Of a stretch of 63,330 nt of DNA, positions 1 to 63,330 are shown piece after piece (position 1 is the stretch's first letter; each line of letters opens with the position of its first letter). Under the pieces are notes generated by a model. The model did not search any database. It saw nothing but the letters and a program-made list of their open reading frames with translations, and was not told the DNA's origin. The translations under genes and the position numbers were made by a program. The DNA is taken from positions 1 to 63,330 of IMG/VR virus record IMGVR_UViG_3300037851_000912; one strand, 5' to 3'. Origin of the DNA: a virus.

Positions 1-127
1 CGCATGTGCTGGGCGCCCTCGCGTGGACGCAGCTGGCAAAGATGGACGGGTTCATCGACCGGCGACGCAGGATCGCGGCGATGTACCGCGAGCTGCTGCC
101 CGAGTTCTGGTGGCAGACGATGCCGCC
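1..127. repeat. Terminal overlap copy 1, identical to 63204..63330. The contig is circular or terminally redundant.
   Basis: Read directly: bases 1-127 (cgcatgtgctgggcgccc...gatgccgcc) recur exactly at 63204-63330. One ORF stays in frame across the junction. Confidence 0.95.
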
Positions 128-443
128 TGGAGGATCCGCATGGCTCGAGTTCGTCCGCTTCCCGGTCGAGCCGCCGACGGACCCGGTGGAGCTGGACGAG
201 CTGGGCATCAGCCCGAAGGTGAAGCGGATGGGCGACTGGCTGTTCGAGCGCCAGATCGAGGTGCGGCCCGGGTTCATCCCGCTGCGGCGCCACCCGGCGT
301 TCCGCGTGCCGCCGGATGGCGCCTGGACGGCCGCCGACGACGCCGTGTGGCGAGGGCTCTGCCTGCCTTCGCACCCCGGCCTCGACGACGCGGACGTGCT
401 GTCGGTGGTGAGGGCGGTCAGGGAGGCATGGGAGGTCGCATGA
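1..443 (+). CDS. DegT/DnrJ/EryC1-type PLP sugar aminotransferase, C-terminal part. Same gene as 62483..63330; the unique part is 128..443.
   Basis: Frame of track ORF 6..443. It is in phase with the 62483 start once the 63203 offset is removed. Stop TGA 441-443 overlaps the next ATG (ATGA). Confidence 0.85.
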   Translation, partial: HVLGALAWTQLAKMDGFIDRRRRIAAMYRELLPEFWWQTMPPGGSAWLEFVRFPVEPPTDPVELDELGISPKVKRMGDWLFERQIEVRPGFIPLRRHPAFRVPPDGAWTAADDAVWRGLCLPSHPGLDDADVLSVVRAVREAWEVA

Positions 444-1402
444 AGAAGCGGGCGTTGATCTTCGGCGCGAGCGGGCAGGACGGCCCGTATCTGGCGACCG
501 AGCTGATCGAGCGCGGCTACGAGGTGTGGGGCTGCGTGCCTGGGTGGGACCCGAAGGTGCTGGCGATGCAGTCCCGAGAGCCGCGGATGCAGGTCGTCTA
601 CGGCGACCTGATGGACCCGCACCTGCCGAGCCGTATGCTCGACCACGTGGAGCCCGACGTCGTGTACAGCCTTGCGGCGATCACGTTCGTCCCGGCGTCC
701 TGGGCCGAGGTCGACCCGACCGTCCTGACGAACGGCGTGTTCCCGGTGCGCCTGCTCGAAGCCGTGCGGACGATGGCGCCGCACGTGAAGGTGTACCAGG
801 CCAGCACGTCGGAGATGTTCGGCAAAAGCGCCCCGCCGCAGTCGATCGACACGCCGTTCCTGCCGGTGAGCCCGTACGCCGCGGCGAAACTGCTGGCGCA
901 CCACGCCGTGCACGTGTACCGAGAGAGCTACGGCCTGTTCGCGGTCTCTGGCGTACTGTTCAATCACGAGAGCCCGCACCGGGGCCGCGAGTTCGTGACC
1001 CGTCATGTCTCGATCAGCGTCGCCCGGGCCAGGGCCGGCCAGATCCGAGAGGCGCCGATCGGGAACCTCGCCGGGCTGAGGGATTGGGGCCACGCCGCAG
1101 ACTACGTCCGGGCGATGGTGCTGATGATGGAGAACGACGAGCCGAAGGACTACGTCGTCGGGACCGGCACGATGCACAGCGTCCAAGAGCTGGTCGACTA
1201 CGCGACGGCGATTGCGGCGGTCGACCCGGAGCTGTTCGTCGTGTCGCCGAAGCGAATGCGCCTGGCCGAGACCGCTCCGTTGCAGGCCGACAGCCGGCCG
1301 ATTCGGGACGAGCTGCATTGGCAGCCACGCTACGACTTCGAGGCGCTGATCCGAGAAATGGTGCTGGCCGACATCGAACGGGTCGAGAGGGGCGAGCTGT
1401 GA
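440..1402 (+). CDS. gmd: GDP-mannose 4,6-dehydratase-like SDR
   Basis: ATG 440 inside track ORF 23..1402. MKKRALIFGASGQDGPYL is a Rossmann motif, SPYAAAKLLAHH is YxxxK, and GVLFNHESPHRGREFVTR is the classic GMD block. Confidence 0.85.
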   Translation: MKKRALIFGASGQDGPYLATELIERGYEVWGCVPGWDPKVLAMQSREPRMQVVYGDLMDPHLPSRMLDHVEPDVVYSLAAITFVPASWAEVDPTVLTNGVFPVRLLEAVRTMAPHVKVYQASTSEMFGKSAPPQSIDTPFLPVSPYAAAKLLAHHAVHVYRESYGLFAVSGVLFNHESPHRGREFVTRHVSISVARARAGQIREAPIGNLAGLRDWGHAADYVRAMVLMMENDEPKDYVVGTGTMHSVQELVDYATAIAAVDPELFVVSPKRMRLAETAPLQADSRPIRDELHWQPRYDFEALIREMVLADIERVERGEL

Positions 1403-2802
1403 GGGTCCTGATCGACTTCGTGTGGGAGAACCCGGAGGTCCCGGAGGGCGACAGCTCGTGGCTGTGGAGCCGCGACATCGCGAAGGCGCTGACCGAGCGT
1501 GGGCACTTCGTCTACTGGGTGACGCCGACCCGCGACGGCGACGGCGTCCTCGAGCGGGTCGAACGGCTCGAGGCGACGTCGAGCGCCCGCGAGGCCGAGG
1601 CCATCGTGCCGCCGTCCGTCGCCGCCCGGTGGGCCTCGCCGCTGCAGCCGCTCGACGCCGTGCTGACGAACAACCCGGTCCGGGCGATGGTGCTCGCGCA
1701 ATGGCTGAACACGCTGCACAAGGGCCAGGTCGAGATACCGGTCGTCGTGATGAACGTGAGCGTCAAGTTCCCGGGCTTCGACGAGCTCGGCGCCTTCGGG
1801 CCACGCGACCTCGCGATGTGGGCGTTCGGCTACGCGATGAACCCGAACGTCATGCCGAGCAAGTTCGCCCTCGAGCGGAGCCGCGACGCCGTGTTCGCGT
1901 ACTGCGGGCCGGCGCTGGTCGCGAAGTACGACGAGACGGCCGTGGTCGAGTACCTGGGCCCGCCGACGTCGGTCATCGACGAGGTGCGGCAGCCGAAGTT
2001 CGAGCGGTTCAGCCTGTACTACGGCGGGCGGTTCACCGCGACCAAGGGCGGCGAAGACGTCGTCAACGCCTACGTCCGGTTCCTGATTGGGGGCCGCAAG
2101 GACGCCGACGCCTACGTCACGCACGTCGGGATGGCCCAGCGGCTGCAGGAGGCGCTGGCGAAGTACGACGCCCGCGGGCTGGTCAACGTGCAGGGGAACC
2201 TCGGCTGGCGGCAGGCGGCGGCGCTGATGAGCCGCTGCCACGCCTCCGTGTTCTGGCAGTCGATGAGGATGTTTCCGAGCACGCCGTTCGAGCAGATGTA
2301 CGCCGGGCTCGCCGTCATGATCCGCCGAGACGAGTGGACCGACGAGTTCGTGCCGAAGGAGTACCCGTTCCAGTTCGAGTCGGCCGACGAGCTCGACGCC
2401 CTGCTCCGGTGGGTGGCCGAGAACCGAGATGAAGCGATGGCGAAGATCGCCTGGGTGCCCGAATGGGTAAAGGCGACGTACGACCGGCAGGCCGGCATCG
2501 GCCGGGTGCTGAATCGCCTCGAGGCCAGGACGGACGAGCTGGCCGCGTCGACCGTGGACGGGTACCACCGGCTGAAGGACACGAGGAAGGTGATTGCTGA
2601 GGCGATTGAGACGGTCGGCACGCCCGCGCCGCTGGGCCAGGTGGCGACCGTCCTGACGAGGATGCGGCCCGGGATGCTCCGGACGCACACGACGGCGAAG
2701 GGCCTGTTTATGAACGAGCTGCGGCGCCTCTGGCCGCCCGAGTACGTCGACACGTGCGAGGATCCCGAGCCGATGTTCGTCCGGACGGAGGTGGCGTCGT
2801 GA
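1399..2802 (+). CDS. Putative GT-B fold glycosyltransferase (467 aa)
   Basis: GTG 1399 with GTGA overlap, in track ORF 526..2802. The C-terminal half reads YYGGRFTATKGGEDVV ... PFEQMYAGLAVMI, which is E-x7-E-like. Family call is by eye only. Confidence 0.6.
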   Translation: MRVLIDFVWENPEVPEGDSSWLWSRDIAKALTERGHFVYWVTPTRDGDGVLERVERLEATSSAREAEAIVPPSVAARWASPLQPLDAVLTNNPVRAMVLAQWLNTLHKGQVEIPVVVMNVSVKFPGFDELGAFGPRDLAMWAFGYAMNPNVMPSKFALERSRDAVFAYCGPALVAKYDETAVVEYLGPPTSVIDEVRQPKFERFSLYYGGRFTATKGGEDVVNAYVRFLIGGRKDADAYVTHVGMAQRLQEALAKYDARGLVNVQGNLGWRQAAALMSRCHASVFWQSMRMFPSTPFEQMYAGLAVMIRRDEWTDEFVPKEYPFQFESADELDALLRWVAENRDEAMAKIAWVPEWVKATYDRQAGIGRVLNRLEARTDELAASTVDGYHRLKDTRKVIAEAIETVGTPAPLGQVATVLTRMRPGMLRTHTTAKGLFMNELRRLWPPEYVDTCEDPEPMFVRTEVAS

Positions 2803-3521
2803 CCGAGGTCCGGCTGCCGGTGCTGGTCGACATCGCGCTGATCGACGTCGTGGAATGGAACCCGAACGAGGAGAGCGAGGCGGTATTCGCCCAGTTGGTG
2901 CAGAAGATCCGGGAGCAGGGGTTCAAGCACCCGGTCGACCTCGTGCCGGACGGCGAGCGGTACCGCGTCATCGCCGGCGAGCACCGGGTCAAGGCAGCCG
3001 CGGTCGTCGGGCTGTCGCAGGTGCCGGCGTACATCGACGACGTGTCGGAGGAGGACCGCCAACAGATCGAGAGCATCCGCGACAACGTCGTCCGGGGCAC
3101 GGTCGACCCGGCCCGCTTCACGCGCATCTACGGGAAGCTGGCCCACAAGTACGGGCCCGACGCGCTGCGCCGGATGATGGGGCTGACCGAGGAGGCCGCG
3201 TTCCGGCGTTTGTACCGCGACACGCAGCGGTCCCTGCCGCCCGAGATCCGCAAGCGGATGGCCGCCTCGAAGAAGGAGGTCGCGACGGTCGAGGACCTGG
3301 GCCGGGTGCTGCAGGAGATCTTCGCCACGTACGGCTCGTCGGTCGACCTGTCGTTCGTCGTGTTCAGCTTCGGGGGCCGGGAGCACCTGCTCGTCCGGTG
3401 CGAGAAGCGAGCCTGGGACAACCTGCAGCGCATCACCGACGAGTGCGTCGAGGCCGGGGTGGACGTGAACGACCGGCTGAACCAGCTGCTCGAGCAGTTC
3501 CTGCCCTTCGGCGAGGACTGA
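2799..3521 (+). CDS. ParB/Srx-like N-terminal domain protein, paralog 1
   Basis: GTG 2799 with GTGA overlap. Contains IALIDVVEWNPN ... YRVIAGEHRVKAAAVVGL. Collinear full-length similarity to 60584..61354. Confidence 0.7.
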   Translation: MTEVRLPVLVDIALIDVVEWNPNEESEAVFAQLVQKIREQGFKHPVDLVPDGERYRVIAGEHRVKAAAVVGLSQVPAYIDDVSEEDRQQIESIRDNVVRGTVDPARFTRIYGKLAHKYGPDALRRMMGLTEEAAFRRLYRDTQRSLPPEIRKRMAASKKEVATVEDLGRVLQEIFATYGSSVDLSFVVFSFGGREHLLVRCEKRAWDNLQRITDECVEAGVDVNDRLNQLLEQFLPFGED

Positions 3522-3524
3522 CCC

Positions 3525-4241
3525 GTGCCGCGCCCGCGGAAGAAGCCAGACCGGCGGCCGAAGGTGCCGCGGGTCATGCCGGCCGCCATCCGAGAGGCGT
3601 ACGACCCGTACGAGCCCGCGGTATGGGTCGCCTCCCGGGTGCCGCGCTGGCAGCCGCTCGTCAAGCACGAGAAGTTCCGGGTCATCCTCGGGATGCTGCT
3701 CTCGGGCCGGGGACCGTGGCGGACCGCCGACTGGATCCGTGCGAACGTCCCGGCGAACGACGCGCTGGGCGTCGACAAGCTGTCGCGCCTCGCGCTGGCC
3801 CGGCGCCTGCAGCGGTTCCAGAAGGCGCTGCCCGACCGGGTCGGCATCGCCGCGACGTTCCTCGACGAGAAGTTCGTCCGGGTCGACGTCGACCTCGACG
3901 AGATCGCCGAGATCGACGGGCTGATCCGCTACCAGAAGTTCCGGCTGGGCATCCTGGGCATGAAGGAGGCCGACTTCGGCGTGCCGGTCGAACAGCAGGG
4001 CCGCGAGGTCGACCGGCTGGCGAACCTGCTCGTCCGGCGGAAGCTGCTGCTGGACGGGGTGATGAACGTGACGCAGCAGACGGTCGGGCAGCAGGTGAAC
4101 GTGGTCGTCCAGCAGTCCGAGGCCGCGTCATCGGTCGCCGGGTACCTGCGCGACAACCCCGCCGCGATCCCGAAGCTGATGAGCCTGTTCGACGACCTCG
4201 AGCCAGCGGTCGTGGTGATCGAGGAGGAGACGACGACGTGA
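3525..4241 (+). CDS. Candidate small terminase subunit
   Basis: GTG 3525. Basic N-terminus MPRPRKKPDRRPK. Lies immediately upstream of the large terminase and overlaps it (GTGA). The call rests on position only. Confidence 0.45.
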   Translation: MPRPRKKPDRRPKVPRVMPAAIREAYDPYEPAVWVASRVPRWQPLVKHEKFRVILGMLLSGRGPWRTADWIRANVPANDALGVDKLSRLALARRLQRFQKALPDRVGIAATFLDEKFVRVDVDLDEIAEIDGLIRYQKFRLGILGMKEADFGVPVEQQGREVDRLANLLVRRKLLLDGVMNVTQQTVGQQVNVVVQQSEAASSVAGYLRDNPAAIPKLMSLFDDLEPAVVVIEEETTT

Positions 4242-6025
4242 CCGCCGCACCGCTGGCCGACATCGCGAGCCTCGAAGCGGAGGACGTGGCCGAGCTGCGC
4301 CTGCAGTACGACCCGTGGTACTGGGCGCGCTACCGGGCGAACGTCCAGCTGCCGAAGACCGGGCCGCTCGAGCTCGAGTCGCACCCGTTCCTGCGAGACG
4401 TGTTCAGAGACACGCACCCCGAGATCGTCGTGATCAAGGGCGCCCAGATGGGCTTCAGCACGACCGCGCTGATCCGGACGTTCTGGTTCGCGACGACGTT
4501 CCCGGTGACGGCGATGTACACGTTCCCGAGCGGGTCGGACGTGACGAAGTTCACGCAGAGCCGCATCAACCCTCTGATTAGCGGGACGCCGTACCTGCGG
4601 AAGCGCATCGTCGACGTGAACAGCGTCACGATCAAGCAGTTCCGGGTCATGCACGAGTCGGAGATGGAGCGATGGCTCGCGCTGCCAAGCCACAAGCGCC
4701 CGGCCTGGAGCGGGCAACGCTCGACGCTGTACTTCAGCGGCGCGAGCACCGAGAAGGACGCCGCAACGGTCGACGCCGACCTTGTGGTGCACGACGAGGA
4801 AGACCTGGCCGACCCGCAGATCATCGAGCAGTTCGAGAGCCGGCTGGACGCGTCGAAGTTCAAGTGGCGGTTCCGACTGTCGACCCCGCGCATCCCGGGC
4901 GCCGGCATCGACCGGGTGTGGAAGACGACCGACATGCGGAAATGGTTCGTCCGGTGCAGCCGCTGTAACAGCGAGTTCGAGATGGCGTTCCCCGGTGGGC
5001 CGTGGGACTACTCTTGCATCGAGCCGGTCAGCGTCGCGGAGTTCGAGCGGATGGGCAAGGCGCGCTACGTCTGCCCGCGTTGCAAGGGCACGCTGAGCGA
5101 CGCCGACCGGGCGGCCGGGCGCTGGATCGCCACCGCGCCGGGACCGGCGTCCCGGGCCCACGGGTACCAGGTCAGTCAGATGGCCGCGCCGTGGGTGACG
5201 GCCGAGCGCGTCCTGCAGCGGCGCAGCCGAGCCACGTGGGAGAGCGACTTCTGGAACCTCGTGATGGGCATCCCGTGGGAGGAGGGTACGAACGCGATGA
5301 CCCGCGACGCCCTGCTCGGACGGCAGGACACGACGCGGGCCATGCAGCAGACGGCGGTCGGCGGGTTCATGGGCGTCGACGTCGGGGCGAAGCTCGACGT
5401 GATCGTGGACGTCATGGAGGAGGGCCGGCCGAGGACGGTGCACATGGGGCGATACGACTCGTTCGACGAAATGGACGGGCTGATGGCCCGCTTCGACGTC
5501 CGGACGTGCGTCGTGGACGCCGCGCCTGACTCGCATTTGACGCGCCAGTTCGCCGACCGATACAACGACTACGAGAGCGGCAGGATCAGGGTGTGGCGGG
5601 TGACGTACGGCGGCGGGCCGAAGGGCCCGCAGGTCGTGTGGAACGAGAAAACGGGCGACGTCACCGCTCCGCGGACCGAGATCTTGAGCAAGTCGGCCGA
5701 CGAGCTGTTGGCCGAGCGGGTACTGCCGAGGTACGACGGCAGCGAGGCGTACGAGGCGTTCCTCGTGCACCATTGGAACAGCAAGAAGGTGCCGCAGTTC
5801 GTCGAGGGCTTGGAGAGCCAGGGTGTCCTCGCCGGGTACAAGTGGGTCGAGGTCGGGCCGGACCACCTGTTCCACGCCGCGACGTACGCGATGCTGGCGC
5901 GGATGGCGCCCCGGGACCAGGCCCCGCCGATGATCGGGCTGGTGAGCCTGCGCCGGCGTCCGCAGGGCTCGAACGTCGAGGCCCCGGTGTACCGGCCGGC
6001 GAGCGTTCGGCCGCCGAGCCGATGA
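4238..6025 (+). CDS. Large terminase subunit, GpA/lambda-like
   Basis: GTG 4238 within track ORF 2855..6025. VVIKGAQMGFSTT is Walker A-like and LVVHDEED is Walker B-like. Zn-ribbon CSRCNS...CPRCKG. Confidence 0.8.
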   Translation: MTAAPLADIASLEAEDVAELRLQYDPWYWARYRANVQLPKTGPLELESHPFLRDVFRDTHPEIVVIKGAQMGFSTTALIRTFWFATTFPVTAMYTFPSGSDVTKFTQSRINPLISGTPYLRKRIVDVNSVTIKQFRVMHESEMERWLALPSHKRPAWSGQRSTLYFSGASTEKDAATVDADLVVHDEEDLADPQIIEQFESRLDASKFKWRFRLSTPRIPGAGIDRVWKTTDMRKWFVRCSRCNSEFEMAFPGGPWDYSCIEPVSVAEFERMGKARYVCPRCKGTLSDADRAAGRWIATAPGPASRAHGYQVSQMAAPWVTAERVLQRRSRATWESDFWNLVMGIPWEEGTNAMTRDALLGRQDTTRAMQQTAVGGFMGVDVGAKLDVIVDVMEEGRPRTVHMGRYDSFDEMDGLMARFDVRTCVVDAAPDSHLTRQFADRYNDYESGRIRVWRVTYGGGPKGPQVVWNEKTGDVTAPRTEILSKSADELLAERVLPRYDGSEAYEAFLVHHWNSKKVPQFVEGLESQGVLAGYKWVEVGPDHLFHAATYAMLARMAPRDQAPPMIGLVSLRRRPQGSNVEAPVYRPASVRPPSR

Positions 6026-57526: not shown

Positions 57527-58459
57527 GTGAGACGACCGTCTCAGCACGCGGCCGCCCGGAGCGCGCTGCACAAGCACATCCGCCGAGGCGAGGTCGAGCA
57601 GGCCGCCGGCGTAGCGCGCTACCTGCATGAGCTGAACGACGACGACGGGCTGGCGCGACGCCTGACGGCCATCGTGACCGAGGACGTCGAGCCGTACTGG
57701 CTCCCGGTCGTGGCGAAGGAGGCGGTGCGGGCCATGACGCCCGACCCGGCCGAGGAGCCGGCCGACCTCGTCCGCGTCGCGGCGACGCTGGCCGCGGCCC
57801 CGAAGCGGAAGGAGAGCTACTGGCTCGCCGAGACGGTGTGGGAGAACCGGACCCCGCCGAGAGAGCCGGCCGGCTTCGCCTCGCTCGAGGCGGCGGTCGA
57901 GCATGGCGACCACGCGCAGGTGCTGGCGCAGCTGCTCTGGTTCCACGAGCAGCGGAAGATCCGCGAGGCCGAGGACCTGCTGCGACGGCGGCACGTCCGG
58001 TCGGCGCTGGCCGAGGACATGCTGCGGTGGGCCGTCTGGCGCCTGCAGCTCGGCGGCTTCGGCGGCGGCGAGGCGTTGGCTGCGGCTGCGGTCGCGCTGG
58101 TCGACGCGCCCGAACAGGCCCGGCCGTTCGAGCAGTTCGACATCGACGTCGAGCCGTTGGGCCCGCCGTACGAGTGGTACTGCTACGACGCCCACACGCA
58201 GGTGGGCAAGATCGCGGTCGGGTCGTTCGCCAAGCGCCGGGGCTGGAACCGCGACCAGCTGGGGATGCTGTCGTTCTACTACGAGAGCGCCGTGCTCGGG
58301 CCGTCGGTCGTGCCCGGTCGATGGGACGGAGAGGCCGCCGAGCTGCTGGCGCGGACGTACGGCTGGCTGACGCCGGAGCACGGGGCCGACCTGTGGGCGG
58401 CGATCCGGGTCGACTTCATGGGGCTGGTGCGTTGGCTGCTCGCACGCGGCGTCGGGTGA
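57527..58459 (+). CDS. MgsA/RarA C-terminal-domain-like protein lacking an AAA+ module
   Basis: GTG 57527 after GGAGGGACGAG. SALHKHIRRGEVEQAAGVARYL...LARRLTAIVTEDVEP...LAAAPKRKESYW...YCYDAHTQ resembles the MgsA_C pattern. Confidence 0.45.
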   Translation: MRRPSQHAAARSALHKHIRRGEVEQAAGVARYLHELNDDDGLARRLTAIVTEDVEPYWLPVVAKEAVRAMTPDPAEEPADLVRVAATLAAAPKRKESYWLAETVWENRTPPREPAGFASLEAAVEHGDHAQVLAQLLWFHEQRKIREAEDLLRRRHVRSALAEDMLRWAVWRLQLGGFGGGEALAAAAVALVDAPEQARPFEQFDIDVEPLGPPYEWYCYDAHTQVGKIAVGSFAKRRGWNRDQLGMLSFYYESAVLGPSVVPGRWDGEAAELLARTYGWLTPEHGADLWAAIRVDFMGLVRWLLARGVG

Positions 58460-58477: not shown

Positions 58478-59212
58478 ATGCTGGTCGCGTCGATCCCGAG
58501 CCGATACAGGTGTGAGCCGCTGATTGCGGAGGTCCGCGGTCTGCTCTACGAGGATGCGGTCGACCGAGTCCTCGTCTACGACAACGGGTACGGCCCAGAC
58601 GACGCCGCCAGAATCAGAGCGGCGCTGTCCGGGCCTCGCTGTACCGTCGTCGACGCCGCCGGGTGGCCGCTCCACCGCATGTGGAACGCCGGCTGGGAAT
58701 GGGCCCAGGAGCAGGGCGGCGAGGTCTCGCTGGCGATCCTGAACGACGACGTGTCGTTGCCGCTCGGCGCGCTGACGGAGCTCGAGAAGCGGCTCCGGTC
58801 GCGGCCCGACGTCGGCGTCGTGTACCCGGAGGGCGGGCGCTTCCGGAAGTTCGAGGACGGGATCGGCCCGGGGCCGCTGGTCAACACGGGTGGCCGGCTG
58901 CAGGAGCAGCGGGGCATGACCGGGCACGCGTTCATGTTTCGCGCCGAGGTCCGCGACATCGAGAAGTTCGACGAGCGGTTCGGCTGGTGGTACGGCGACG
59001 ACGACTTCGTGCTGAAATGGGCGCTCGCCGGCTGGAAGGTCTGCCGAGCCGTCGGTGTCCCGGTGAAGCACGTCGGGATGGCCTCGTCGAAGGGCCGCCC
59101 GGAGCTCGTGCCGATCCGAGCGGCCGACGGTGTGCTGTTCCGCCAGCTGTACCCGGAGTGGGTCGACTCGAAGGCTCGCTACGAGCGATGGCCGGATGAA
59201 GTGATCGAGTAG
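58478..59212 (+). CDS. GT-A fold (family 2-like) glycosyltransferase
   Basis: RVLVYDNG, LAILNDDV (DxD) and WWYGDDDF. Confidence 0.65.
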   Translation: MLVASIPSRYRCEPLIAEVRGLLYEDAVDRVLVYDNGYGPDDAARIRAALSGPRCTVVDAAGWPLHRMWNAGWEWAQEQGGEVSLAILNDDVSLPLGALTELEKRLRSRPDVGVVYPEGGRFRKFEDGIGPGPLVNTGGRLQEQRGMTGHAFMFRAEVRDIEKFDERFGWWYGDDDFVLKWALAGWKVCRAVGVPVKHVGMASSKGRPELVPIRAADGVLFRQLYPEWVDSKARYERWPDEVIE

Positions 59213-59229
59213 CCGTCAGGGGCAAGCCC

Positions 59230-60600
59230 ATGCGTGTTCTGGCCGTCCCGATGCTGTACACGGACGCGTCGGTCTCGGGTGTCAGCGTGATCGCGAACCT
59301 CGCGGCGTCCGTGACGGCCGCGGCGGAGCTCGAGCTACCGGAGTACTGGGAGATCGTCGTCGCGTCGCGCCCGTCGGGATATGGATCCCAGCAGGTCGAC
59401 TGGTTGAAGCGACCCCGTGTCAGCGTCCAGCCGCTCGGCGACGTGACCGACGTGAACGAGGACCCGCCCGTCAGCTGGGACATGCTGCGCCCGCTCCTGC
59501 CCAGGAAGGGCCGCGTCGTGTTCGACGTCGTGCTGAACAACCGCTACCTGCACAGCGCGACCATCGCGAACACGCTGCAGGTGCCGCCCGGGAAGTGGTA
59601 CCAGACGATCGAGATCCCGGTCGTGACGTGGCTGACCGAGACCGGCCTCGACAAGCGCGAGTGGCAGCTGAACAGCAAGCCCGGGGTGGCGCTCCTGACC
59701 GCGTGCGCCATGACCGGGCCGTTCGTCGTCATGAACCAGGCCGACGCCGACTGGCTGACCGGCGTCCTTGACCGGGAGGCCCTAGTGTACGTTGTGCCGC
59801 CCTGCGCTGACCTGTCGCGCCTGACGCCCGAGAAGCGCCGGCGCGACCGGAGGGTCGTGTTCCACGGCGGCAGCATCGAGGGCCGCCGCCGGCTGAAGGC
59901 GTTGCACGACGCGCTGCCGGCCGAGGCCGATCTGCTCCTGACGAGCCAGCAGACGTTCAGTCCCGGCGCGTTCCCGAGGGCGCGGACGATCAGCAACGTC
60001 GACCACGAGGAGTACCTGCGGCTGCTCCCGCAGGGCGACATCGTGTACGTCGGCTCCGAGTACGAGGGCACCGGGCTCGGCTGGATGGAAGCCATCGCGA
60101 GCGGAATGCTGCCGGTGCTCCTCGACGCCGGCTGGATGGCGGCGCGGCTGCCGGCCGGCTACCCGCTGCAGGCGCGCACGCCCGGCGAGCTGCGAGCGGT
60201 GCTGGCGCGAGCCGTGGCCGAGTACGACGAGCTGTGGGACGAGTGGATGCCGAAAGTGCTCGACGGGCTGGCCGGATTCCAGCCGGCCGCGGTCGCCCAG
60301 CGGATGCACGACACGCTGGCCGAGATCGCCGAGCCGGCAAGGAAGCGGAACTTGGCGGCAGCGCAGAAGTGGTCGCCCGGGTTCGACCTGCTGGCCCGGG
60401 CGGTCGAAGCGGAGGGATGGTCGGTCGTCACGGATGCCAGACCGTTGTGGAAGGCGATGAGCCGGCAGAGCCGCACCGGCCTCGAGCCGTCGTGGTACAG
60501 CCCGGCCGCGCTCCGGTGGATGCTGATGGCGCTCGGCTACGAGGACCGACACGAGCAGAGCGGGCTCGACCTGAGGAGGGAAGATGCCGCCCGAGCATGA
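59230..60600 (+). CDS. GT-B fold (GT4-like) glycosyltransferase
   Basis: YVGSEYEGTGLGWMEAIASGMLPVL is an E-x7-E-type motif. 456 aa. Confidence 0.65.
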   Translation: MRVLAVPMLYTDASVSGVSVIANLAASVTAAAELELPEYWEIVVASRPSGYGSQQVDWLKRPRVSVQPLGDVTDVNEDPPVSWDMLRPLLPRKGRVVFDVVLNNRYLHSATIANTLQVPPGKWYQTIEIPVVTWLTETGLDKREWQLNSKPGVALLTACAMTGPFVVMNQADADWLTGVLDREALVYVVPPCADLSRLTPEKRRRDRRVVFHGGSIEGRRRLKALHDALPAEADLLLTSQQTFSPGAFPRARTISNVDHEEYLRLLPQGDIVYVGSEYEGTGLGWMEAIASGMLPVLLDAGWMAARLPAGYPLQARTPGELRAVLARAVAEYDELWDEWMPKVLDGLAGFQPAAVAQRMHDTLAEIAEPARKRNLAAAQKWSPGFDLLARAVEAEGWSVVTDARPLWKAMSRQSRTGLEPSWYSPAALRWMLMALGYEDRHEQSGLDLRREDAARA

Positions 60601-61354
60601 GCTCCGGATGGTGCACGTCGATGCGATCGTGCCGGACCCGGAGAACCCGCAGACGCAGGACAGCACGACGTTCAGCGACCTCGTCGACTCGATTGCCCAG
60701 GACGGCATGACCGAGGCCGTGACGGTGGTCGACATCGGCGGGGGCAAGTGGATGCTCGTCGCCGGCGAGCACCGCTGGCGAGCCGCGAAGATGGCCGGGC
60801 TCGAGGCCGTGCCGGCCATCGTCATCGCGAAGGGCACGTGGGACGACGACGAGCGAGCGATCCGCATGGTCCGGAGCAACGTCCTGCGGGGCCGGCTCGA
60901 CCCGGCGAAGTTCACGGCGCTGTACGGGCAGCTGGCGAAGCGGTACAGCCCCGACGACCTGCGGCGGATGCTCGGGTTCACGTCCAAGAAGCACGAGATG
61001 GAGCGCCTGGTCGGCAGCATCACCGCGGCGATGCCCGAGCCGATGAAGAAAGAGATGCGCCAGAGGGGCCAGCAGGCGGAGAGCGTGGACGACCTCGGCA
61101 GCGTCGTCCAGAGCCTGTTCGCGAGGCACGGCGCGACCGTGGCCGCCCACTTCGTGCTGTTCGCCTACGGGGGCCGCACGCACCTGATGGTCGAGTGCGA
61201 GCCGGAGACGTTCGCGCAGATCGAGGCATGGGCCGAGCGGGTCGAGCGCACCGGCGGCACGGTCGATGCAGAGCTGGCGAGGATGGTCAGCGAAGTGACC
61301 GCGAACGAGCGCGGCGAGGCGGTGCATTCCGCACGGAATAGGAGCGACCGATGA
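60584..61354 (+). CDS. ParB/Srx-like N-terminal domain protein, paralog 2
   Basis: VHVDAIVPDPENP...WMLVAGEHRWRAAKMAGL. Collinear with 2799..3521 along its whole length. Confidence 0.7.
   Translation: MPPEHELRMVHVDAIVPDPENPQTQDSTTFSDLVDSIAQDGMTEAVTVVDIGGGKWMLVAGEHRWRAAKMAGLEAVPAIVIAKGTWDDDERAIRMVRSNVLRGRLDPAKFTALYGQLAKRYSPDDLRRMLGFTSKKHEMERLVGSITAAMPEPMKKEMRQRGQQAESVDDLGSVVQSLFARHGATVAAHFVLFAYGGRTHLMVECEPETFAQIEAWAERVERTGGTVDAELARMVSEVTANERGEAVHSARNRSDR
61325..61340 (+). repeat. Hairpin element copy 10, inside the 3' end of the ParB-like gene
   Basis: CATTCCGCACGGAATA, 11 nt before ATG 61351. Encodes ..HSARN.. Confidence 0.6.
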
Positions 61355-61764
61355 CCGAGTGGAAGCGCCTCGAGTTCCTGCGGCCGACGATGAACCTCGA
61401 CACGGTGAAGGACGGCCGCGGAGGCATCCTGACGTACGTGCCGCCGGAGCCCGTGGTCGAGTGGAACCTGATCGTCACGAAGGCCGGCAAGGTGCGCGGG
61501 ATGCATTGGCACCCGCACTTCGTCGAGTACCTGCTGTTCGTCGACGGGCACGGCGTCGTCGTCAGCCAGGACCGCGACGACGAGGCCGGCGAGAGCCGCG
61601 AGGTCACGAACGTCAGCAAGGGAGTCTGCACCCGAGCGCCGGTCGGCGTGGCGCACACCGTCCTCGCGATCACCGACCTGACGTTCGTCGCGATCCTGAC
61701 GCGGAAGTGGGACGACAGCGACCCGCCGATCGTGCAGCTCCCGGCCGAGAGGTTCGGGCTGTGA
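61351..61764 (+). CDS. Cupin: sugar 3,4-ketoisomerase / epimerase-like (FdtA/WxcM-C/RmlC class)
   Basis: ATGA overlap. Contains KDGRGGILTYVP...GKVRGMHWHPHFVEYLLFVDGHG. Confidence 0.6.
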   Translation: MTEWKRLEFLRPTMNLDTVKDGRGGILTYVPPEPVVEWNLIVTKAGKVRGMHWHPHFVEYLLFVDGHGVVVSQDRDDEAGESREVTNVSKGVCTRAPVGVAHTVLAITDLTFVAILTRKWDDSDPPIVQLPAERFGL

Positions 61765-62486
61765 AGGTCGCGGTGTTCGGCGCCTCTGGGTGGGTCGGGT
61801 CCCGGGTCGTGCAAGAGCTGGAAGGGTTCAACGACACGCAGGTGGTCGGGGTCACGCGGGACGGCCCGCACATCGAGGGCACCGTCTTCGACGTGGTCGT
61901 GAACGCCGCCTGCCCGAGCCAGCGATGGTCGGCCGAGCAGGACCCGTGGTGGGACTTCCAAGAGAGTGTTCGGAAGACCGAGATGATCCTGACGCGGACC
62001 CGTTGGTCGAGGTTCGTCCAGATCAGCAGCTTGAGCGCCCGGGCCGAGCTCGACACGGTGTACGGGCGGCACCGGCTGGCCGGCGAGGCGCTGGTGCCGC
62101 CCGGCCGCGGGGTCGTCGTCCGGCTGGGCCCGATGTACGGGCCGCGTGGCAAGGGAGCCCTGTTCGACATGATGGCCGACCGGCCCGTGTACGCGACGAG
62201 GGACACGCGCTACGGGTACGTCGACGTCAGCTACGCCGCGGCCCAGGTGATGCGGCAGGTGTTCCTCGACACCGCCGGTGTCGTTGAGATCGGGCCGAAC
62301 GGCTGGGTGGAGCTGGGCGAGATCGCCGACGCGCTGGGGTCGACCTCGCGCTTCGTCGGCCGCCGGGCCGACCAGTACGTGCCGTCCGAGGTCGTGGGCG
62401 AAGATGTCCAGGCAGCGGTGATGTGGAAGGAGTGGTGGCGGCCGAGTGCTCGCGACGTCATCGCATGGGCGAAGGAGAACCGATGA
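61761..62486 (+). CDS. Short SDR-type NAD(P)-dependent sugar reductase/epimerase
   Basis: GTG 61761 with GTGA overlap. VKVAVFGASGWVGSRV is a Rossmann motif. YGRHRLAGE may be YxxxK-like with K replaced by R. Confidence 0.6.
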   Translation: MKVAVFGASGWVGSRVVQELEGFNDTQVVGVTRDGPHIEGTVFDVVVNAACPSQRWSAEQDPWWDFQESVRKTEMILTRTRWSRFVQISSLSARAELDTVYGRHRLAGEALVPPGRGVVVRLGPMYGPRGKGALFDMMADRPVYATRDTRYGYVDVSYAAAQVMRQVFLDTAGVVEIGPNGWVELGEIADALGSTSRFVGRRADQYVPSEVVGEDVQAAVMWKEWWRPSARDVIAWAKENR

Positions 62487-63330
62487 TGCTCAGGCTGAAC
62501 GAACCGAGCCTCGACGCGACGGATGCGCTGGCGGTCTCAGACGTCGTCCGCTCCGGCTGGATCGGGCTGGACGGCACGCAGACGAAGCGGTTCGAGCGAG
62601 ACTTCGCCCGGCGCCACGAGATGCGGCACGGCGTCGCGGTCCAGAGCGGGACGGCAGCCACGCACACGGCCCTGTGGGCGCTGTTCGAGTCGCGGCGGCG
62701 CTCGGGGACGTTCCGTGGCGGGCACGTCGCCGTGGCCGACTTCACGTGCTCCGCGCCCGGGGCGGCGGTCGTCCATGCCGGCGGGACGCCGCACTTCGTC
62801 GATGTCGAGGAATCGACGCTCGGCATGAGCGTCATGGCGCTGGCCGAGCTCGACGGCGACGGCCTCGACGTCGTGCTCGTCGTCCACGTGTACGGGGCGC
62901 CGGCTCGGGACATGGAGCAGATCGTCGCCTGGTGCCGCGAGCACGGCGTGTCCGTCCTCGAGGACTGCTGCGAAGCGCACGGGGCCAAGTACCCGGACGG
63001 GTCCTCGATCGGGACGAGGGGCGACGTCGCCGTGTTCAGCGTCCGGTCGGAGAAGGTGATCGGGGTCGGCGAGGGCGGGGTCGTGGTGACGAACGATCCC
63101 GAGCTCGCCCAGCTGGCCGAGTTCTGGGCGAACCGCGGTAAGCCGAGAGATGGCTGGGTGTGGCGGTTCTACACGAGCGAGCCGGGCTGCAACTACAAGA
63201 TGCCGCATGTGCTGGGCGCCCTCGCGTGGACGCAGCTGGCAAAGATGGACGGGTTCATCGACCGGCGACGCAGGATCGCGGCGATGTACCGCGAGCTGCT
63301 GCCCGAGTTCTGGTGGCAGACGATGCCGCC
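62483..63330 (+). CDS. DegT/DnrJ/EryC1-type PLP sugar aminotransferase, N-terminal part (continues at 128..443)
   Basis: ATGATG at 62483 with ATGA overlap. AVQSGTAATHTAL and VFSVRSEKVIGVGEGGVVVT, which carries the PLP lysine context. The frame is open to the window end. Confidence 0.85.
   Translation, partial: MMLRLNEPSLDATDALAVSDVVRSGWIGLDGTQTKRFERDFARRHEMRHGVAVQSGTAATHTALWALFESRRRSGTFRGGHVAVADFTCSAPGAAVVHAGGTPHFVDVEESTLGMSVMALAELDGDGLDVVLVVHVYGAPARDMEQIVAWCREHGVSVLEDCCEAHGAKYPDGSSIGTRGDVAVFSVRSEKVIGVGEGGVVVTNDPELAQLAEFWANRGKPRDGWVWRFYTSEPGCNYKMPHVLGALAWTQLAKMDGFIDRRRRIAAMYRELLPEFWWQTMP
63204..63330. repeat. Terminal overlap copy 2, identical to 1..127
   Basis: Exact 127-nt identity with the window start. 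Unique genome length is therefore 63,203 bp. Confidence 0.95.

Follow-up and report, generated by a model that had tools for sequence, protein, structure and literature searches.

Orphan phage ParB proteins, which consist of a nucleotide-binding and a C-terminal domain and are devoid of a DNA-binding domain, were shown experimentally to be required for the activation of a DNA-modifying enzyme on double-stranded DNA (PMC13229309). Among glycosyltransferase-containing viral contigs, ParB annotations are tied specifically to DNA-hypermodification contexts, and the top PDB neighbours of experimentally DNA-modifying phage GT-B enzymes include BshA and MshA (bioRxiv 10.1101/2023.12.21.572611). The DNA of phage DLP3 resisted 15 of 15 restriction enzymes (PMC7326821) and that of DLP5 was cut by only 4 of 36 (PMC5834331); the authors of both studies proposed a membrane or LPS modification. 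Phage-encoded virion glycosylation has a precedent in actinophages (Freeman et al. 2023, as cited in PMC12363180 and PMC12619734). On the donor side, Staphylococcus aureus CapF unites C3-epimerase and C4-reductase activities (PMC3699295).

Herein, the sugar island of a viral contig is described on the basis of a window of 63,330 nt, positions 1 to 63,330 of IMG/VR record IMGVR_UViG_3300037851_000912. The window starts and ends with the same 127 nt; the contig is therefore a circularly assembled genome 63,203 bp long, and its junction a 127-nt assembly overlap; removal of the duplicate leaves the aminotransferase ORF intact and continuous through the junction. The eight ORFs listed in a sequence-only reading of this DNA are present at their coordinates, and their family calls hold under profile or fold tests, although a second ParB-like gene (ParB2, 2799-3521) and an upstream 310-aa gene had been missed. 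The eight genes, which have Shine-Dalgarno-like sequences upstream, lie on the plus strand, as do ParB2, the 310-aa gene and the two terminase genes. The reported chaining by 4-nt overlaps was confirmed, with six in a row from ParB1 to ParB2 and a seventh between the candidate small terminase (TerS) and the large terminase (TerL); the only gap in the ParB1-to-TerL chain is the 3 nt between ParB2 and TerS. GT-B1 and ParB1 overlap by 17 nt, and gaps of 18 nt and 17 nt separate GT-A from the 310-aa gene and from GT-B1, respectively.

ParB2 closes the island, which abuts the packaging genes as had been noticed. The candidate TerS (3525..4241; pI 9.6) was named from its position, gave no match in family searches and shares 44% identity with its syntenic counterpart in the metagenomic relative L010, while TerL (4238..6025) matches PF05876 (GpA_ATPase) and is about 24% identical to annotated terminases. 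The seven 4-nt overlaps from ParB1 to TerL suggest that the island would be expressed late and translationally coupled to the packaging genes. Its GC3 of 0.91-0.97 equals that of the rest of this high-GC phage genome, which rules out a recent insertion. The 310-aa gene (57527..58459), a possible member of the module, gave no match in Pfam, NCBIfam or PHROG searches. Over its first 54 aa it can be aligned with MgsA_C-domain proteins; these are a recurring component of related modules and are encoded upstream of those of the metagenomic relative L011 and Vibrio phage KarBoss.

The donor side, predicted to provide GDP-mannose-based amino and deoxy sugars, is well supported by profile and motif evidence. 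The GDP-mannose 4,6-dehydratase GMD (440..1402; 320 aa) matches PF16363 at 4.5e-87, is about 40% identical to other GMDs and retains the STSE, YAAAK and FNHESPHRG motifs intact, as read directly; TIGR01472 is by far its best NCBIfam model, at 275.6 bits against an equivalog cut-off of 415. The DegT-family sugar aminotransferase is divided by the window into a 5' part (62483..63330, whose last 127 nt duplicate window positions 1-127) and a 3' part (1..443), which form one ORF after overlap removal. The reconstructed protein of 387 aa matches PF01041 at 1e-69 and carries the PLP lysine within SEKVIGVGEGG, and its best PDB match is GDP-perosamine synthase (3bn1/3dr4, E 3e-35). Both enzymes are thus real, and the suggested transamination of the GDP-perosamine-synthase type accords with the best solved relative.

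GMD would turn host GDP-mannose into GDP-4-keto-6-deoxy-D-mannose, which the DegT enzyme would transaminate to a perosamine-like GDP-4-amino-4,6-dideoxyhexose. L011 keeps only the gene set MT-AT-GMD-GT-B-ParB, which suggests that GMD and the aminotransferase form a self-sufficient branch. Since neither the island nor Pfam look-ups covering most of the genome revealed a nucleotidyltransferase, it is reasonable to consider, as before, that GDP-mannose is drawn from the host pool; no acyltransferase is encoded, so the predicted sugar amine would stay free. It is highly probable that the donor chemistry belongs to this class and that the transferases are real glycosyltransferases.

The three transferases first counted, GT-A and two GT-Bs, were all recovered; each is soluble by prediction, and they would transfer the sugars to a macromolecule of the cytoplasm that is produced late in infection. 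GT-B2 (1399..2802; 467 aa), a GT4-like enzyme with a basic C-terminal extension, matches phrog_30253 at 2e-15 and is homologous to Kitkat gp93, which scores 37.2 bits, above the cut-off, with Pfam GT1. Its AF2 model (pLDDT 65, the C-terminal Rossmann domain being modelled well) matches the GT4 enzymes BshA, PimA, MshA and WaaG in Foldseek. GT-B1 (59230..60600; 456 aa), likewise GT4-like, reaches Pfam GT1 at only E 0.004 and was placed by profile-profile comparison, aligning over its full length with the GT-B2 family (hhalign, 99.2% probability, E 6e-20); the two are distant paralogues. GT-B1 has homologues in Kitkat (gp88) and in the metagenomic relative L012 (its second GT), and its basic C-terminal extension is reflected in a pI of 8.4 for the last 110 aa versus 5.6 for the whole protein.

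Directly 3' of each GT-B lies a gene for a ParB-like protein that lacks an HTH domain and would help its GT-B. ParB1 (60584..61354; 256 aa) matches ParB_N at 2e-14 and phrog_26387 over its full length at 1e-43 and gives no match to HTH_ParB; ParB2 (2799..3521; 240 aa) matches ParB_N at 4.5e-9, phrog_26387 at 2e-49 and the Spo0J nucleotide-binding domain at 8.5e-11, with GEHR as its box. The two are 35% identical (E 4e-49). The phage also encodes a canonical ParB, at 52767-54221.

The island has counterparts in other phages. A triad consisting of a GT4-type GT-B of about 480 aa, an HTH-less ParB-like protein and a terminase occurs in 7 of the 7 cultured phage groups examined, whose hosts are Arthrobacter, Stenotrophomonas, Vibrio, Rhodobacter, Rhizobium and Agrobacterium, and in the metagenomic relatives L010, L011 and L012, the GT-B/ParB-like adjacency being present twice in the window. 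Its carriers therefore span Actinobacteria and alpha- and gamma-Proteobacteria. ParB2 homologues are present in 22 phage records, lying between GT and terminase in every group examined, and the ParB-like gene is no interloper: such a gene follows GT-B in every related phage examined. By homology and gene order, the island appears to be a cargo-rich version of a conserved, widespread late-operon phage glycosylation module, in which the sugar-tailoring genes are variable cargo.

Virion proteins, host envelope and DNA had been put forward as acceptors, a fair list in which the envelope is now disfavoured and the other two stand close together. For the GT-B core, phage DNA is our tentative first choice, held with less than even confidence, and modification would occur just before packaging. 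The adjacency of GT-B, ParB-like gene and terminase across diverse phages implies an acceptor common to all of them. DNA is favoured by the orphan ParB activators and the ParB-hypermodification association, by the restriction-refractory DNA of DLP3 and DLP5, the only module carriers whose DNA has been tested, by the basic extensions of both GT-Bs, and by the BshA and MshA neighbours that GT-B2 has in common with DNA-modifying phage GT-Bs. Cationic adducts are a recurring theme of DNA hypermodification, and the free amines predicted on the delivered sugars point in the same direction.

Several observations count against DNA. No ThyA-like hydroxymethylase, ThyX, TET/JBP 5mYOX or TGT/DpdA was found in the complete genome, about 60% of whose ORFs are unannotated, and no base-hydroxylating enzyme appears in the Kitkat annotation either, so a source of 5-hydroxymethyl-pyrimidines is missing among the enzymes found; with no phage DNA polymerase seen in the genome, pre-replicative base substitution is also unlikely. 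DLP3 and DLP5, whose modification is chemically undefined, also encode a homologue of thymidylate synthase along with further candidates. The list of the top 50 PDB matches of GT-B2 contains neither the alpha- nor the beta-glucosyltransferase of T4, and the ParB-like gene could be a member of the packaging module instead of a partner of the GT.

The head-gene cassettes of the GT-A family also tell against DNA and point to virion proteins, on which the three soluble GTs, using the same donors, would construct an O-linked glycan during assembly (capsid and tail proteins being among the possible targets), with the ParB-like genes as mere packaging or partition neighbours. GT-A (58478..59212; 244 aa) gave no match at all in profile searches and belongs to a rare phage-specific family; its AF2 model (pLDDT 92.5) matches GT2/GT-A enzymes in Foldseek PDB at E 3e-9 and weaker, including AvpGT, ppGalNAc-T2, the GDP-fucosyltransferase WrtF and SpsA, and 26 homologues keep its NDD and GD motifs without exception. 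The family occurs on 125 IMG/VR contigs, often close to genes for methyltransferases, GTs and head proteins: at 63 of the 80 retrieved loci an extra GT or methyltransferase lies no more than 4 kb away, and at 29 Pfam-confirmed head genes (capsid, portal, prohead protease, HK97-gp10-like) do so. In locus L003 the cassette is placed between portal and capsid genes, and KimJongPhill has a GT-MT-GT cassette. The coupling to late genes, the actinophage precedent and the lack of a base-hydroxylating enzyme among those found are also in keeping with a virion acceptor. None of the 80 loci contained a GT-B or ParB homologue (one had a GMD-like gene), and GT-A is an add-on that accompanies the GT-B/ParB core in no other retrieved carrier. 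That core adjoins terminase rather than head genes, a protein could be the acceptor only if it were conserved over phages of very different hosts, and no homologue of the three GTs was detectable in any Mycobacterium phage in a set of 50,697 records. Free, non-acylated amino sugars, as predicted here, are uncommon in protein glycans, and, as a weak point, the capsid and tail-tube C-termini have no obvious Ser/Thr-rich extension. Virion glycosylation is thus doubtful, while still a serious competitor of DNA.

Transfer to an envelope glycan, a lipid-linked precursor (cell-wall polysaccharide or lipoglycan), a host protein or a small molecule, for superinfection exclusion or takeover, is improbable, and the host envelope an unlikely acceptor: although GT4 relatives such as PimA, MshA, BshA and WaaG have lipids, small molecules or LPS cores as substrates, the DLP3 and DLP5 proposals concern membrane or LPS, and the canonical ParB and the DLP5 phagemid make a carrier state conceivable, this one GT-B family is used by phages of both Gram-positive actinobacteria and Gram-negative proteobacteria, with no acceptor common to the two kinds of envelope, no transmembrane segment, flippase, polymerase or polyprenyl-phosphate transferase was found, coupling is to late packaging genes rather than a lysogeny module, no integrase was found in the genome, and 185,579 species genomes contain no member of the GT-B2 family, which is therefore not observed in integrated prophages.

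Besides the aminotransferase branch, a second one would start from the GMD product, in which the cupin as C3-epimerase and the short SDR as C4-reductase would yield an epimeric GDP-6-deoxyhexose. Their Pfam evidence is weak alone, and both were secured through homologues and profiles. The cupin (61351..61764; 137 aa) falls just under the PF14667 cut-off (2.7e-6), matches cupin_1 and cupin_2 weakly and aligns with the cupin domain of CapF (E 4.5e-4); an FdtA/RmlC-like type was not demonstrable (FdtA E 0.92). The short SDR (61761..62486; 241 aa) represents a family of 284 representatives, whose profile matches the SDR domain of CapF (E 5e-13); in an alignment of 47 members, 38 of which match Pfam Epimerase, GxxGxxG, Ser89 and Tyr101 are invariant and YGRxR replaces YxxxK. 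The cupin is 60-62% identical to cupins in deoxysugar clusters of Nocardia, Nonomuraea and Actinomadura, and the SDR is 40-41% identical to the gene directly 3' of the cupin in Nocardia and Nonomuraea, where the same pair adjoins GMD homologues; these identities suggest an actinobacterial origin. There is a slim chance that the pathway is instead linear, with the cupin as a 3,4-ketoisomerase working with GMD and the aminotransferase toward a mycosamine-like GDP-3-amino-3,6-dideoxyhexose and the SDR inactive or unrelated: the tightly coupled cupin-SDR-AT-GMD order and the Arg in place of the canonical SDR Lys would suit it, as would the GDP-mycosamine pathways of actinomycetes, which are not known to have an identified isomerase, but the cupin fits CapF and not FdtA, the Nocardia and Nonomuraea pair travels without an aminotransferase, L010 and L011 have the aminotransferase without a cupin, the kept YGRxR, Ser and Tyr argue for an active SDR, and the aminotransferase has a C4 transaminase as its best solved relative. 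This alternative touches donor chemistry only and fits any acceptor.

In comparison with known systems, the cupin and SDR would constitute a putative split CapF-like C3-epimerase/C4-reductase pair, encoded by separate genes where S. aureus CapF has two domains of one protein. The proposed role of the ParB-like proteins is likened to orphan ParB activation of phage T-dioxygenases on double-stranded DNA, while a virion acceptor would resemble mycobacteriophages Che8, Corndog and Myrna. So complete a tailoring pathway in a phage of this size had been called unusual, a view that calls for some qualification: DLP3, KarBoss and RHph_TM16 carry modules of SDR, DegT aminotransferase, GT-B, ParB-like protein and terminase. 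PG28 has a deacetylase version, and Kitkat, RcDurkin and JP1 possess the module without tailoring genes. The pairing of a PIG-L deacetylase with a BshA-like GT in DLP3, KarBoss, PG28 and L012 suggests free-amine sugars there as well. This phage does stand out by a chemistry based on GDP-mannose and by how many parts its module has.

An end-to-end sequence comparison revealed that positions 1-127 of the window are repeated exactly at 63204-63330 as a terminal direct repeat. Such identical 127-nt ends are those of an assembler k-mer overlap, which indicates that the contig is circular with a length of 63,203 bp and that the "junction" is an assembly artefact; once the duplicate 127 nt are trimmed, a single 387-aa open reading frame, that of the DegT-family aminotransferase (AT), spans it. 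The same phage was also encountered in the Logan run SRR12687606 as two contigs of 52,257 and 6,364 nt. The island of sugar-tailoring and glycosyltransferase genes ahead of the terminase lies wholly on the + strand, each gene with a Shine-Dalgarno-like sequence. A 310-aa unknown protein (57527-58459) is followed by the predicted glycosyltransferases GT-A (58478-59212) and GT-B1 (59230-60600), the ParB-like protein ParB1 (60584-61354), a cupin (61351-61764), a short SDR (61761-62486), AT (62483 through the junction to 443), a predicted GDP-mannose 4,6-dehydratase (GMD, 440-1402), the third predicted glycosyltransferase GT-B2 (1399-2802), the second ParB-like protein ParB2 (2799-3521), and the candidate small and large terminases TerS (3525-4241) and TerL (4238-6025). 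Seven start/stop overlaps of 4 nt, plus one 3-nt gap, occur between ParB1 and TerL, indicating that the island is translationally chained to the packaging genes. The GC content (0.68-0.73) and GC3 (0.91-0.97) of the island genes are the same as in the remainder of the 69.3% GC genome, which rules out a recent horizontal insertion, and scans for promoters and terminators near the island gave no signal above that of shuffled sequence.

When the island and packaging region were compared at the nucleotide level with 50,697 phage records, nothing matched, so the phage has no close cultured relative there. TerL, used as an IMG/VR probe, retrieved no close relative either, and the IMG/VR relatives were obtained via alignments of GT-B2 and GT-A instead. 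In a search for prophage origin and host, no member of the GT-B2 family was found in 185,579 species genomes, and a metagenome scan gained only fragments.

The donor chemistry appears to start from GMD, which is, as judged from its profile scores and motifs, unambiguously assigned as a GDP-mannose 4,6-dehydratase of the extended SDR type. The protein matches PF16363 at 4.5e-87 (293 bits, cut-off 27), and its score of 275.6 bits to the NCBIfam equivalog TIGR01472 is under the cut-off of 415, yet far above that of every other dehydratase model. The reference motifs, namely the catalytic Thr/Ser-x-Glu, YxxxK and the GDP-binding FNHESPRRG segment, can be read in it as QASTSEMFG, SPYAAAKLLAH and a GDP-binding segment of FNHESPHRG type, FNHESPHRGREFVTR. 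The neighbouring AT matches PF01041 at 1e-69 across its full length and keeps the PLP-binding Lys in the segment FSVRSEKVIGVGEGG; a ColD-type dehydratase, with His in place of this Lys, is out, since the Lys is present and the ColD matches are much weaker. Its top PDB matches are the Caulobacter GDP-perosamine synthases 3bn1, 3dr4 and 3dr7 (best E 3.4e-35, 124.8 bits, full length), and none of the NCBIfam equivalog cut-offs was reached (LegC 183 bits and PseC 177 bits, against cut-offs of about 420). From a match of only this score, specificity for C4 and for a GDP-sugar is predicted. AT homologues are present in merely 6 of the 50,697 phage records at E <= 1e-10, and none of the six is an actinophage.

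The cupin and the short SDR each gave weak profile matches when taken singly, but their homologues, gene neighborhoods and family features secure both. Chromosomal cupins of Nocardia, Nonomuraea, Micromonospora and Actinomadura share 60-62% identity with the phage cupin, and in two of these genomes, of Nocardia and Nonomuraea, the cupin is directly followed by a homologue of the short SDR (40-41% identity to the phage protein). Neighbors of these pairs are a GT2, a sugar C-methyltransferase and two SDRs of the GMD family, one of them a GMD homologue (39-40% identity), with an additional mannose-1-P guanylyltransferase-like gene at the Nonomuraea locus; the pairs occur without aminotransferase. 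The sequence-only reading had placed the cupin with the FdtA/RmlC-type enzymes; its identity to deoxysugar-cluster cupins bears out the sugar cupin, but the narrower type, whether FdtA/QdtA ketoisomerase or RmlC, is unsupported (FdtA E 0.92).

The short-SDR family, which comprises 284 representatives of about 237 aa, aligns by profile with the N-terminal SDR domain of Staphylococcus aureus CapF (2zkl) at E 5e-13, positions 1-191 onto 1-210; residues 21-125 of the cupin align with the C-terminal cupin domain of CapF (phmmer E 4.5e-4) and the cupin scores 27.9 bits against PF14667, just short of the cut-off of 28.7. Among 47 members of the short-SDR family, GxxGxxG, Ser89 and Tyr101 are invariant, and the Lys of the canonical triad is replaced by Arg, with YGRHR in the phage protein and a YGRxR consensus in place of YxxxK. 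CapF catalyzes C3-epimerisation and then C4-reduction on a 4-keto-6-deoxy sugar (PMC3699295), and the cupin and short SDR are best read, on these alignments, as a split, order-swapped CapF-like epimerase/reductase. The single polypeptide of CapF, with the SDR N-terminal and the cupin C-terminal, is absent; the genes are separate and the cupin comes first, so that the pair would be CapF-like in working at best and stands outside the CapF family. Both the deoxysugar cluster of Nonomuraea polychroma (L014, 9001-14107) and that on a contig with a match to a Nocardia paucivorans protein (L015, 9001-16584) harbor the cupin, a short SDR (YGxNR), a GT2, a GMD homologue, a TylCIII-type C-methyltransferase and the second GMD-family SDR; L015 has in addition a MycE-like O-methyltransferase, a GT of EryCIII-like type and a GT87, and its neighbors are a very large gene (2,976 aa) without annotation and one for an acyltransferase/thioesterase protein. 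Judged by gene content, the split CapF-like pair appears to recur as a unit in the tailoring of GDP-sugars.

From these assignments we infer a donor pathway in which GMD would convert GDP-mannose of the host pool into GDP-4-keto-6-deoxy-D-mannose; no nucleotidyltransferase was found in the island or in Pfam look-ups spanning most of the genome. In one branch, AT would give a perosamine-like GDP-4-amino-4,6-dideoxyhexose, whose amine should stay free because no acyltransferase is encoded, and in the other, the cupin and short SDR would lead to an epimeric GDP-6-deoxyhexose. The two branches are taken as independent because a metagenomic relative of the island (L011) possesses only a methyltransferase, AT and GMD, and the bacterial clusters possess the cupin-SDR pair without an aminotransferase.

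Of the three transferases, GT-A is divergent in sequence, with zero matches in Pfam, NCBIfam, PHROGs and PDB and only 37 relatives among 5.8 billion clusters. The AlphaFold model built on the alignment of these relatives (pLDDT 92.5) retrieved by Foldseek the GT2/GT-A enzymes AvpGT, ppGalNAc-T2, the GDP-fucose enzyme WrtF and SpsA (E 3e-9 to 1e-6), and the DxD-type motifs N89-D90-D91 and G173-D174 are invariant in the family alignment; the family profile hit only chondroitin synthase in the PDB (E 5e-4). GT-A is filed, from its modelled fold, as a divergent GT-A-fold family that would be GT2-like and outside PF00535. The family occurs on 125 IMG/VR contigs, and a GMD-like gene accompanies it in only 1 of 80 loci, further GTs being typical neighbors.

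GT-B2 is rarer still than GT-A, with 4 clusters only. Against Pfam Glycos_transf_1 (cut-off 26.4 bits), GT-B2 scored 24.6 and GT-B1 17.2, while gp93 of the Arthrobacter phage Kitkat, to which GT-B2 is homologous, reached 37.2. The GT-B2 model reached a moderate pLDDT of 65, with the N-domain poorly modelled, and its top 30 Foldseek matches are nearly all GT4 retaining enzymes, including BshA, PimA, MshA and HepE, as well as WaaG; GGRFTATKG and FEQxYAGL, of the GGR..KG and E-x7 type, are conserved in the motif region. GT-B1 and GT-B2 show no BLASTP similarity to each other, but hhalign matched their families from end to end (99.2%, E 6e-20), including a C-terminal extension of about 100 aa that is basic in both, whereas the whole proteins are acidic. 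On this evidence, both are GT4-like glycosyltransferases of the two-Rossmann GT-B fold. The earlier assignment of the island genes to sugar-enzyme families thus held under profile and Foldseek comparison, with the reservation that GT-B1 and GT-B2 fall below the Pfam cut-off and owe their assignment to the homologue, the fold and, for GT-B1, the hhalign link. The fold is non-discriminating as a guide to the acceptor, as the BshA and MshA neighbors of GT-B2 are shared with proven DNA-modifying phage GT-Bs, and a fold search of a viral library gave chiefly members of this one phage family along with GT1 proteins of generic type. The peak 19-residue hydropathy is <=1.5 in each of the three GTs, in keeping with the absence of membrane segments.

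The gene that follows each GT-B in the window encodes a ParB-like protein, and the two copies, ParB1 and ParB2, are paralogues with 35% identity (E 4e-49). They match ParB_N only, without an HTH domain, and ParB2 also matches the Spo0J nucleotide-binding domain (8.5e-11). A canonical ParB of 484 aa encoded in the same genome (52767-54221, +) matches both ParB_N (5.9e-21) and HTH_ParB (1.1e-29), so the absence of the HTH from ParB1 and ParB2 is real at this sensitivity. No TET/JBP-type dioxygenase (PF12851 type) lies next to the ParB-like genes, whose neighbors are glycosyltransferases and terminase. A recent tandem duplication of the GT-B-ParB unit was rejected, as the ParBs are clear paralogues and the GT-Bs are related only at the profile level; since both GT-B types already occur together in Kitkat and in a metagenomic relative (L012), the duplication of ParB alone is particular to the present genome. 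Neither ParA nor an integrase was detected in the genome beside the canonical ParB (52767-54221), and a plasmid-like carrier state of the phage is conceivable by analogy with DLP5 (PMC5834331).

Three metagenomic relatives illustrate how the module is built. The closest relative, the 10-kb L010, encodes the short SDR (49% identity), AT (60%), a different extended SDR, GT-B2 (58%), ParB2 (70%), TerS and TerL (58%). The other extended SDR (L010 2217-3146) replaces GMD and lacks the dehydratase S/T-x-E motif (STGSSYG), and the inserted 308-aa protein (3156-4082) bears a GDC motif and, further along, a GGHS motif; these differences show cargo turnover within the module. The 81-kb IMG/VR contig L011 contains a canonical ParB, an MgsA_C protein, the methyltransferase, AT, GMD (52% identity), GT-B2 (46%) and ParB2 (47%), past which the genes gave no family match and no terminase match. 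L012, from a 42% GC phage, encodes PIG-L, an MgsA_C-like protein, a methyltransferase, ATP-grasp, WbqC, GT-B, SDR, GT-B, a ParB-like protein and ThyX, followed by an 875-aa intein-containing ORF. Within L012 5493-9971, the PIG-L deacetylase, methyltransferase, PurD-like ATP-grasp and WbqC-like protein lie 5' of the GT-Bs and ThyX lies 3' of the ParB-like gene, a cargo that suggests N-acylated or amidated amino sugars.

ParB2 homologues were found in 22 cultured-phage records, and in all seven groups that were opened (the Kitkat group, DLP3, KarBoss, RcDurkin, RHph_TM16, JP1 and PG28) a GT of 480-530 aa lies just 5' and a terminase just 3' of the homologue. An SDR and a DegT aminotransferase occur in DLP3, KarBoss and RHph_TM16, a PIG-L deacetylase in DLP3 and KarBoss, an annotated methyltransferase in DLP3 and a BshB-like deacetylase in PG28, while Kitkat, RcDurkin and JP1 have the module without tailoring genes. 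Because the tailoring cargo varies between groups, the constant core is composed of GT-B, ParB-like protein and terminase, to which tailoring genes for sugars are added as exchangeable cargo. The GDP-mannose chemistry, CapF-like pair, extra GT-A and duplicated ParB are special to the window, and their combination is rare. The view that such a pathway is unusual in a phage is accordingly retained for the full combination but not for the core, which the search for the syntenic block recovered in 7/7 cultured groups.

Several further observations concern these phages. A gene for a small DprA-like DNA-processing protein lies directly 5' of GT-B in the Rhodobacter and Agrobacterium phages RcDurkin (L101 5591-5980) and JP1 (L104 983-1399), a further neighbor of the module with a link to DNA. 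Kitkat gp29 (NC_031254.1 15621-16721; L103 6622-7722), annotated as a glycosyltransferase, is flanked by the tail terminator and the tail assembly chaperones, the usual slot of the major tail protein; either its annotation is wrong or the tail module includes a GT. The module's WcaG-type SDR in DLP3 (MT110073.1, L099), gp97, was detected in the purified-virion proteome with 10 peptides and 31% coverage, as was the 445-aa ParB-like gp2; the authors took carry-over of non-structural proteins into consideration (PMC7326821).

Elsewhere in the window, genes for a QueC-like PP-loop enzyme (18092-18655, +; PF06508 2.9e-13, phrog_1550) and a YhhQ/Vut_1-type queuosine-precursor transporter (18652-19275, +; PF02592 3.6e-15) lie between head and tail genes, preceded by another ORF (17473-18030, +). 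By family they are predicted parts of a 7-deazaguanine pathway; TGT/DpdA, FolE, QueD and QueE were not found in the genome. A 999-aa protein encoded 3' of the terminase (9692-12691, +) contains the ADP-ribosyltransferase exotoxin domain PF03496 and may be a virion-associated or ejected effector. Moreover, Ku (PF02735; 40642-41454), an SbcD-like metallophosphatase (43736-44836), an SbcC/SMC-like ATPase (45208-47193) and an ATP-dependent DNA ligase (54424-55470), all on the + strand, are the putative constituents of a phage NHEJ/end-processing set, which presumably resembles that of the Ku-encoding mycobacteriophages Corndog and Omega.

With respect to the acceptor, that is, the macromolecule receiving the sugars, phage DNA is tentatively preferred, with a confidence short of even. 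A ParB-like partner is invariably found beside the GT-B in the core, its duplication in the window provides each GT-B with one, and the basic C-terminal extensions of both GT-Bs also count for DNA. Cationic groups are a theme of DNA hypermodification, which free-amine sugars would fit. Orphan HTH-less ParBs have been demonstrated experimentally to be required for activating phage T-dioxygenases on dsDNA (PMC13229309), and ParB annotations in GT-containing viral contigs track DNA-hypermodification contexts (bioRxiv 10.1101/2023.12.21.572611). DLP3 DNA resists 15/15 restriction enzymes (PMC7326821) and DLP5 DNA is cut by only 4/36 (PMC5834331); these are the two module carriers whose DNA has been examined and the only ones in which it is known to be heavily modified, although as a sign of glycosylated bases the resistance is indirect. 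Against DNA count the chemically undefined nature of this modification and the presence of a thymidylate-synthase homologue in DLP3 and DLP5. Also counted against DNA, neither precomputed Pfam tables nor additional scans with Pfam and PHROG models revealed a ThyA-like hydroxymethylase, ThyX, TET/JBP dioxygenase or TGT/DpdA in the window, many ORFs of which are unannotated; none of these enzymes is shown in Kitkat, and no phage DNA polymerase was seen in the window.

Virion proteins are the next candidate, close behind DNA and possible rather than probable. At least 29 of 80 GT-A loci have a head gene (capsid, portal, prohead protease or HK97-gp10-like) within 4 kb, 24 of 80 have a SAM methyltransferase beside the GT-A homologue, and in one locus (L003) the GT-A-family cassette is placed between the portal and capsid genes. 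Virion glycosylation in actinophages is reported as established by Freeman et al. 2023, as cited in PMC12363180. Host-directed targets are improbable and the envelope is unlikely as acceptor, considering that one GT-B family is common to phages of actinobacteria, alpha- and gamma-proteobacteria, that the GTs are devoid of membrane segments, that flippase, polymerase and priming transferase are absent from the phage, and that the island is coupled to late genes. A share of the probability is assigned to none of these three acceptors.

Returning to phage DNA, a more specific and doubtful proposal is that the triad of a GT4-type GT-B with basic extension, an HTH-less ParB-like CTPase-fold protein and terminase may constitute a new class of ParB-assisted DNA glycosyltransferase, which would add cationic amino sugars to phage DNA shortly before packaging and, in the actinophage branch (the window and Kitkat), would do so without a known 5-hydroxymethyl-pyrimidine-forming enzyme. 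The sugar here would be a free 4-amino-4,6-dideoxyhexose from GDP-mannose, and elsewhere GlcN could be delivered via a GT and PIG-L deacetylase. If this holds, the lack of such an enzyme in the window and Kitkat would imply either that the acceptor chemistry is new or that a base-priming enzyme is hidden in the unannotated ORFs.

Should DNA prove to be the acceptor, the module would represent a new DNA-hypermodification family with amino-sugar adducts, a GT aided by a helper of ParB fold and possibly priming chemistry of a new kind. This would account for the resistance of DLP3/DLP5 DNA to nearly all restriction enzymes, with implications for the evasion of restriction and CRISPR and for tools that modify DNA. 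Should the virion be the acceptor, phage self-glycosylation would reach beyond mycobacteriophages and phages would be shown to make their own rare donor sugars, which matters for how immunogenic therapeutic phages are. Whichever the acceptor, the cupin/short-SDR pair (YxxxR, 284 SDR representatives) comprises uncharacterised actinomycete deoxysugar enzymes that merit biochemistry. Meanwhile, cultured phages of six host genera share the core, to which DLP3/DLP5, KarBoss, PG28 and RHph_TM16 add amino-sugar genes, and these phages are growable and testable now.

Among known systems, the seroconverting Gtr/O-antigen phages rely on a membrane GT, flippase/bactoprenol machinery and a site in the lysogeny module, none of which the island has; no GtrA/GtrB, Wzx or Wzy family was found, and the genes are coupled to the terminase. 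The mycobacteriophages Che8, Corndog and Myrna possess actinophage sets of soluble GTs, in many cases accompanied by a methyltransferase, which act late in infection on a product of the phage, and the relatives of GT-A sit in comparable head-module cassettes. A tblastn search of GT-A, GT-B1 and GT-B2 against the 50,697 phage records hit no Mycobacterium phage, so no homology to the Che8, Corndog and Myrna GTs is seen. To our knowledge, the mycobacteriophage glycosylation cassettes contain neither nucleotide-sugar synthesis genes nor a ParB-like partner. Phage DNA glycosylation and 5mYOX T-dioxygenase systems employ soluble GT-A/GT-B enzymes with BshA and MshA neighbors (bioRxiv 10.1101/2023.12.21.572611) and co-occur with ParB-like proteins, terminase, epimerases and secondary GTs, the orphan HTH-less ParB being a partner (PMC13229309); DNA glycosylation pathways always begin, however, with 5hmC or 5hmU from ThyA-like or TET/JBP enzymes, none of which was found in the window, and ParB dependence has so far been established for no GT.

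The bacterial GDP-perosamine pathway (Gmd + Per/RfbE; PDB 3BN1/3DR4) follows the same two-step logic of GMD and PLP transaminase, while the island has no PerB-type N-acyltransferase and is phage-encoded, outside an O-antigen cluster. S. aureus CapF and Pseudomonas aeruginosa WbjC, bifunctional C3-epimerase/C4-reductases of UDP-L-FucNAc synthesis, share the reaction logic on a 4-keto-6-deoxy sugar, from which the island pair differs in its two genes, reversed order, YxxxR instead of YxxxK and a presumed GDP-sugar instead of a UDP-sugar.

Among cultured phages, the nearest relatives of the two GT-Bs and of the ParB-like protein (35% identity) are gp88/gp93/gp95 of Kitkat, KellEzio and BeatusComedenti (Kelleziovirus, Arthrobacter). 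These phages likewise have an MgsA_C-like protein 5' and the module at the genome end adjoining the terminase, but differ in having one ParB-like gene and small ORFs between; as they contain no nucleotide-sugar tailoring genes, host sugars must serve unaltered. The gene order of the island recurs in gp96-gp106 of DLP3/DLP5 (Delepquintavirus, Stenotrophomonas), in KarBoss and PG28 (Vibrio) and in RHph_TM16 (Rhizobium), where tailoring genes are followed by a BshA-like GT-B of about 480 aa, a ParB-like protein, a small protein and TerL. Their ParB-like proteins are homologous to those of the island (E 1e-25 to 1e-33), and their GT, PIG-L and aminotransferase are linked to it through L012 and L011. 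In contrast with the island, these phages of proteobacterial hosts, with genomes of 82-101 kb, have a single GT-B and a single ParB-like gene at the locus, are without GMD, CapF-like pair and GT-A, and carry a generic epimerase/dehydratase and PIG-L (with a methyltransferase in DLP3), which implies UDP-HexNAc-type chemistry. The GT-B/ParB-like/terminase module is annotated in several genomes, phage glycosylation cassettes are known, and the parts of the island are of known enzyme kinds.
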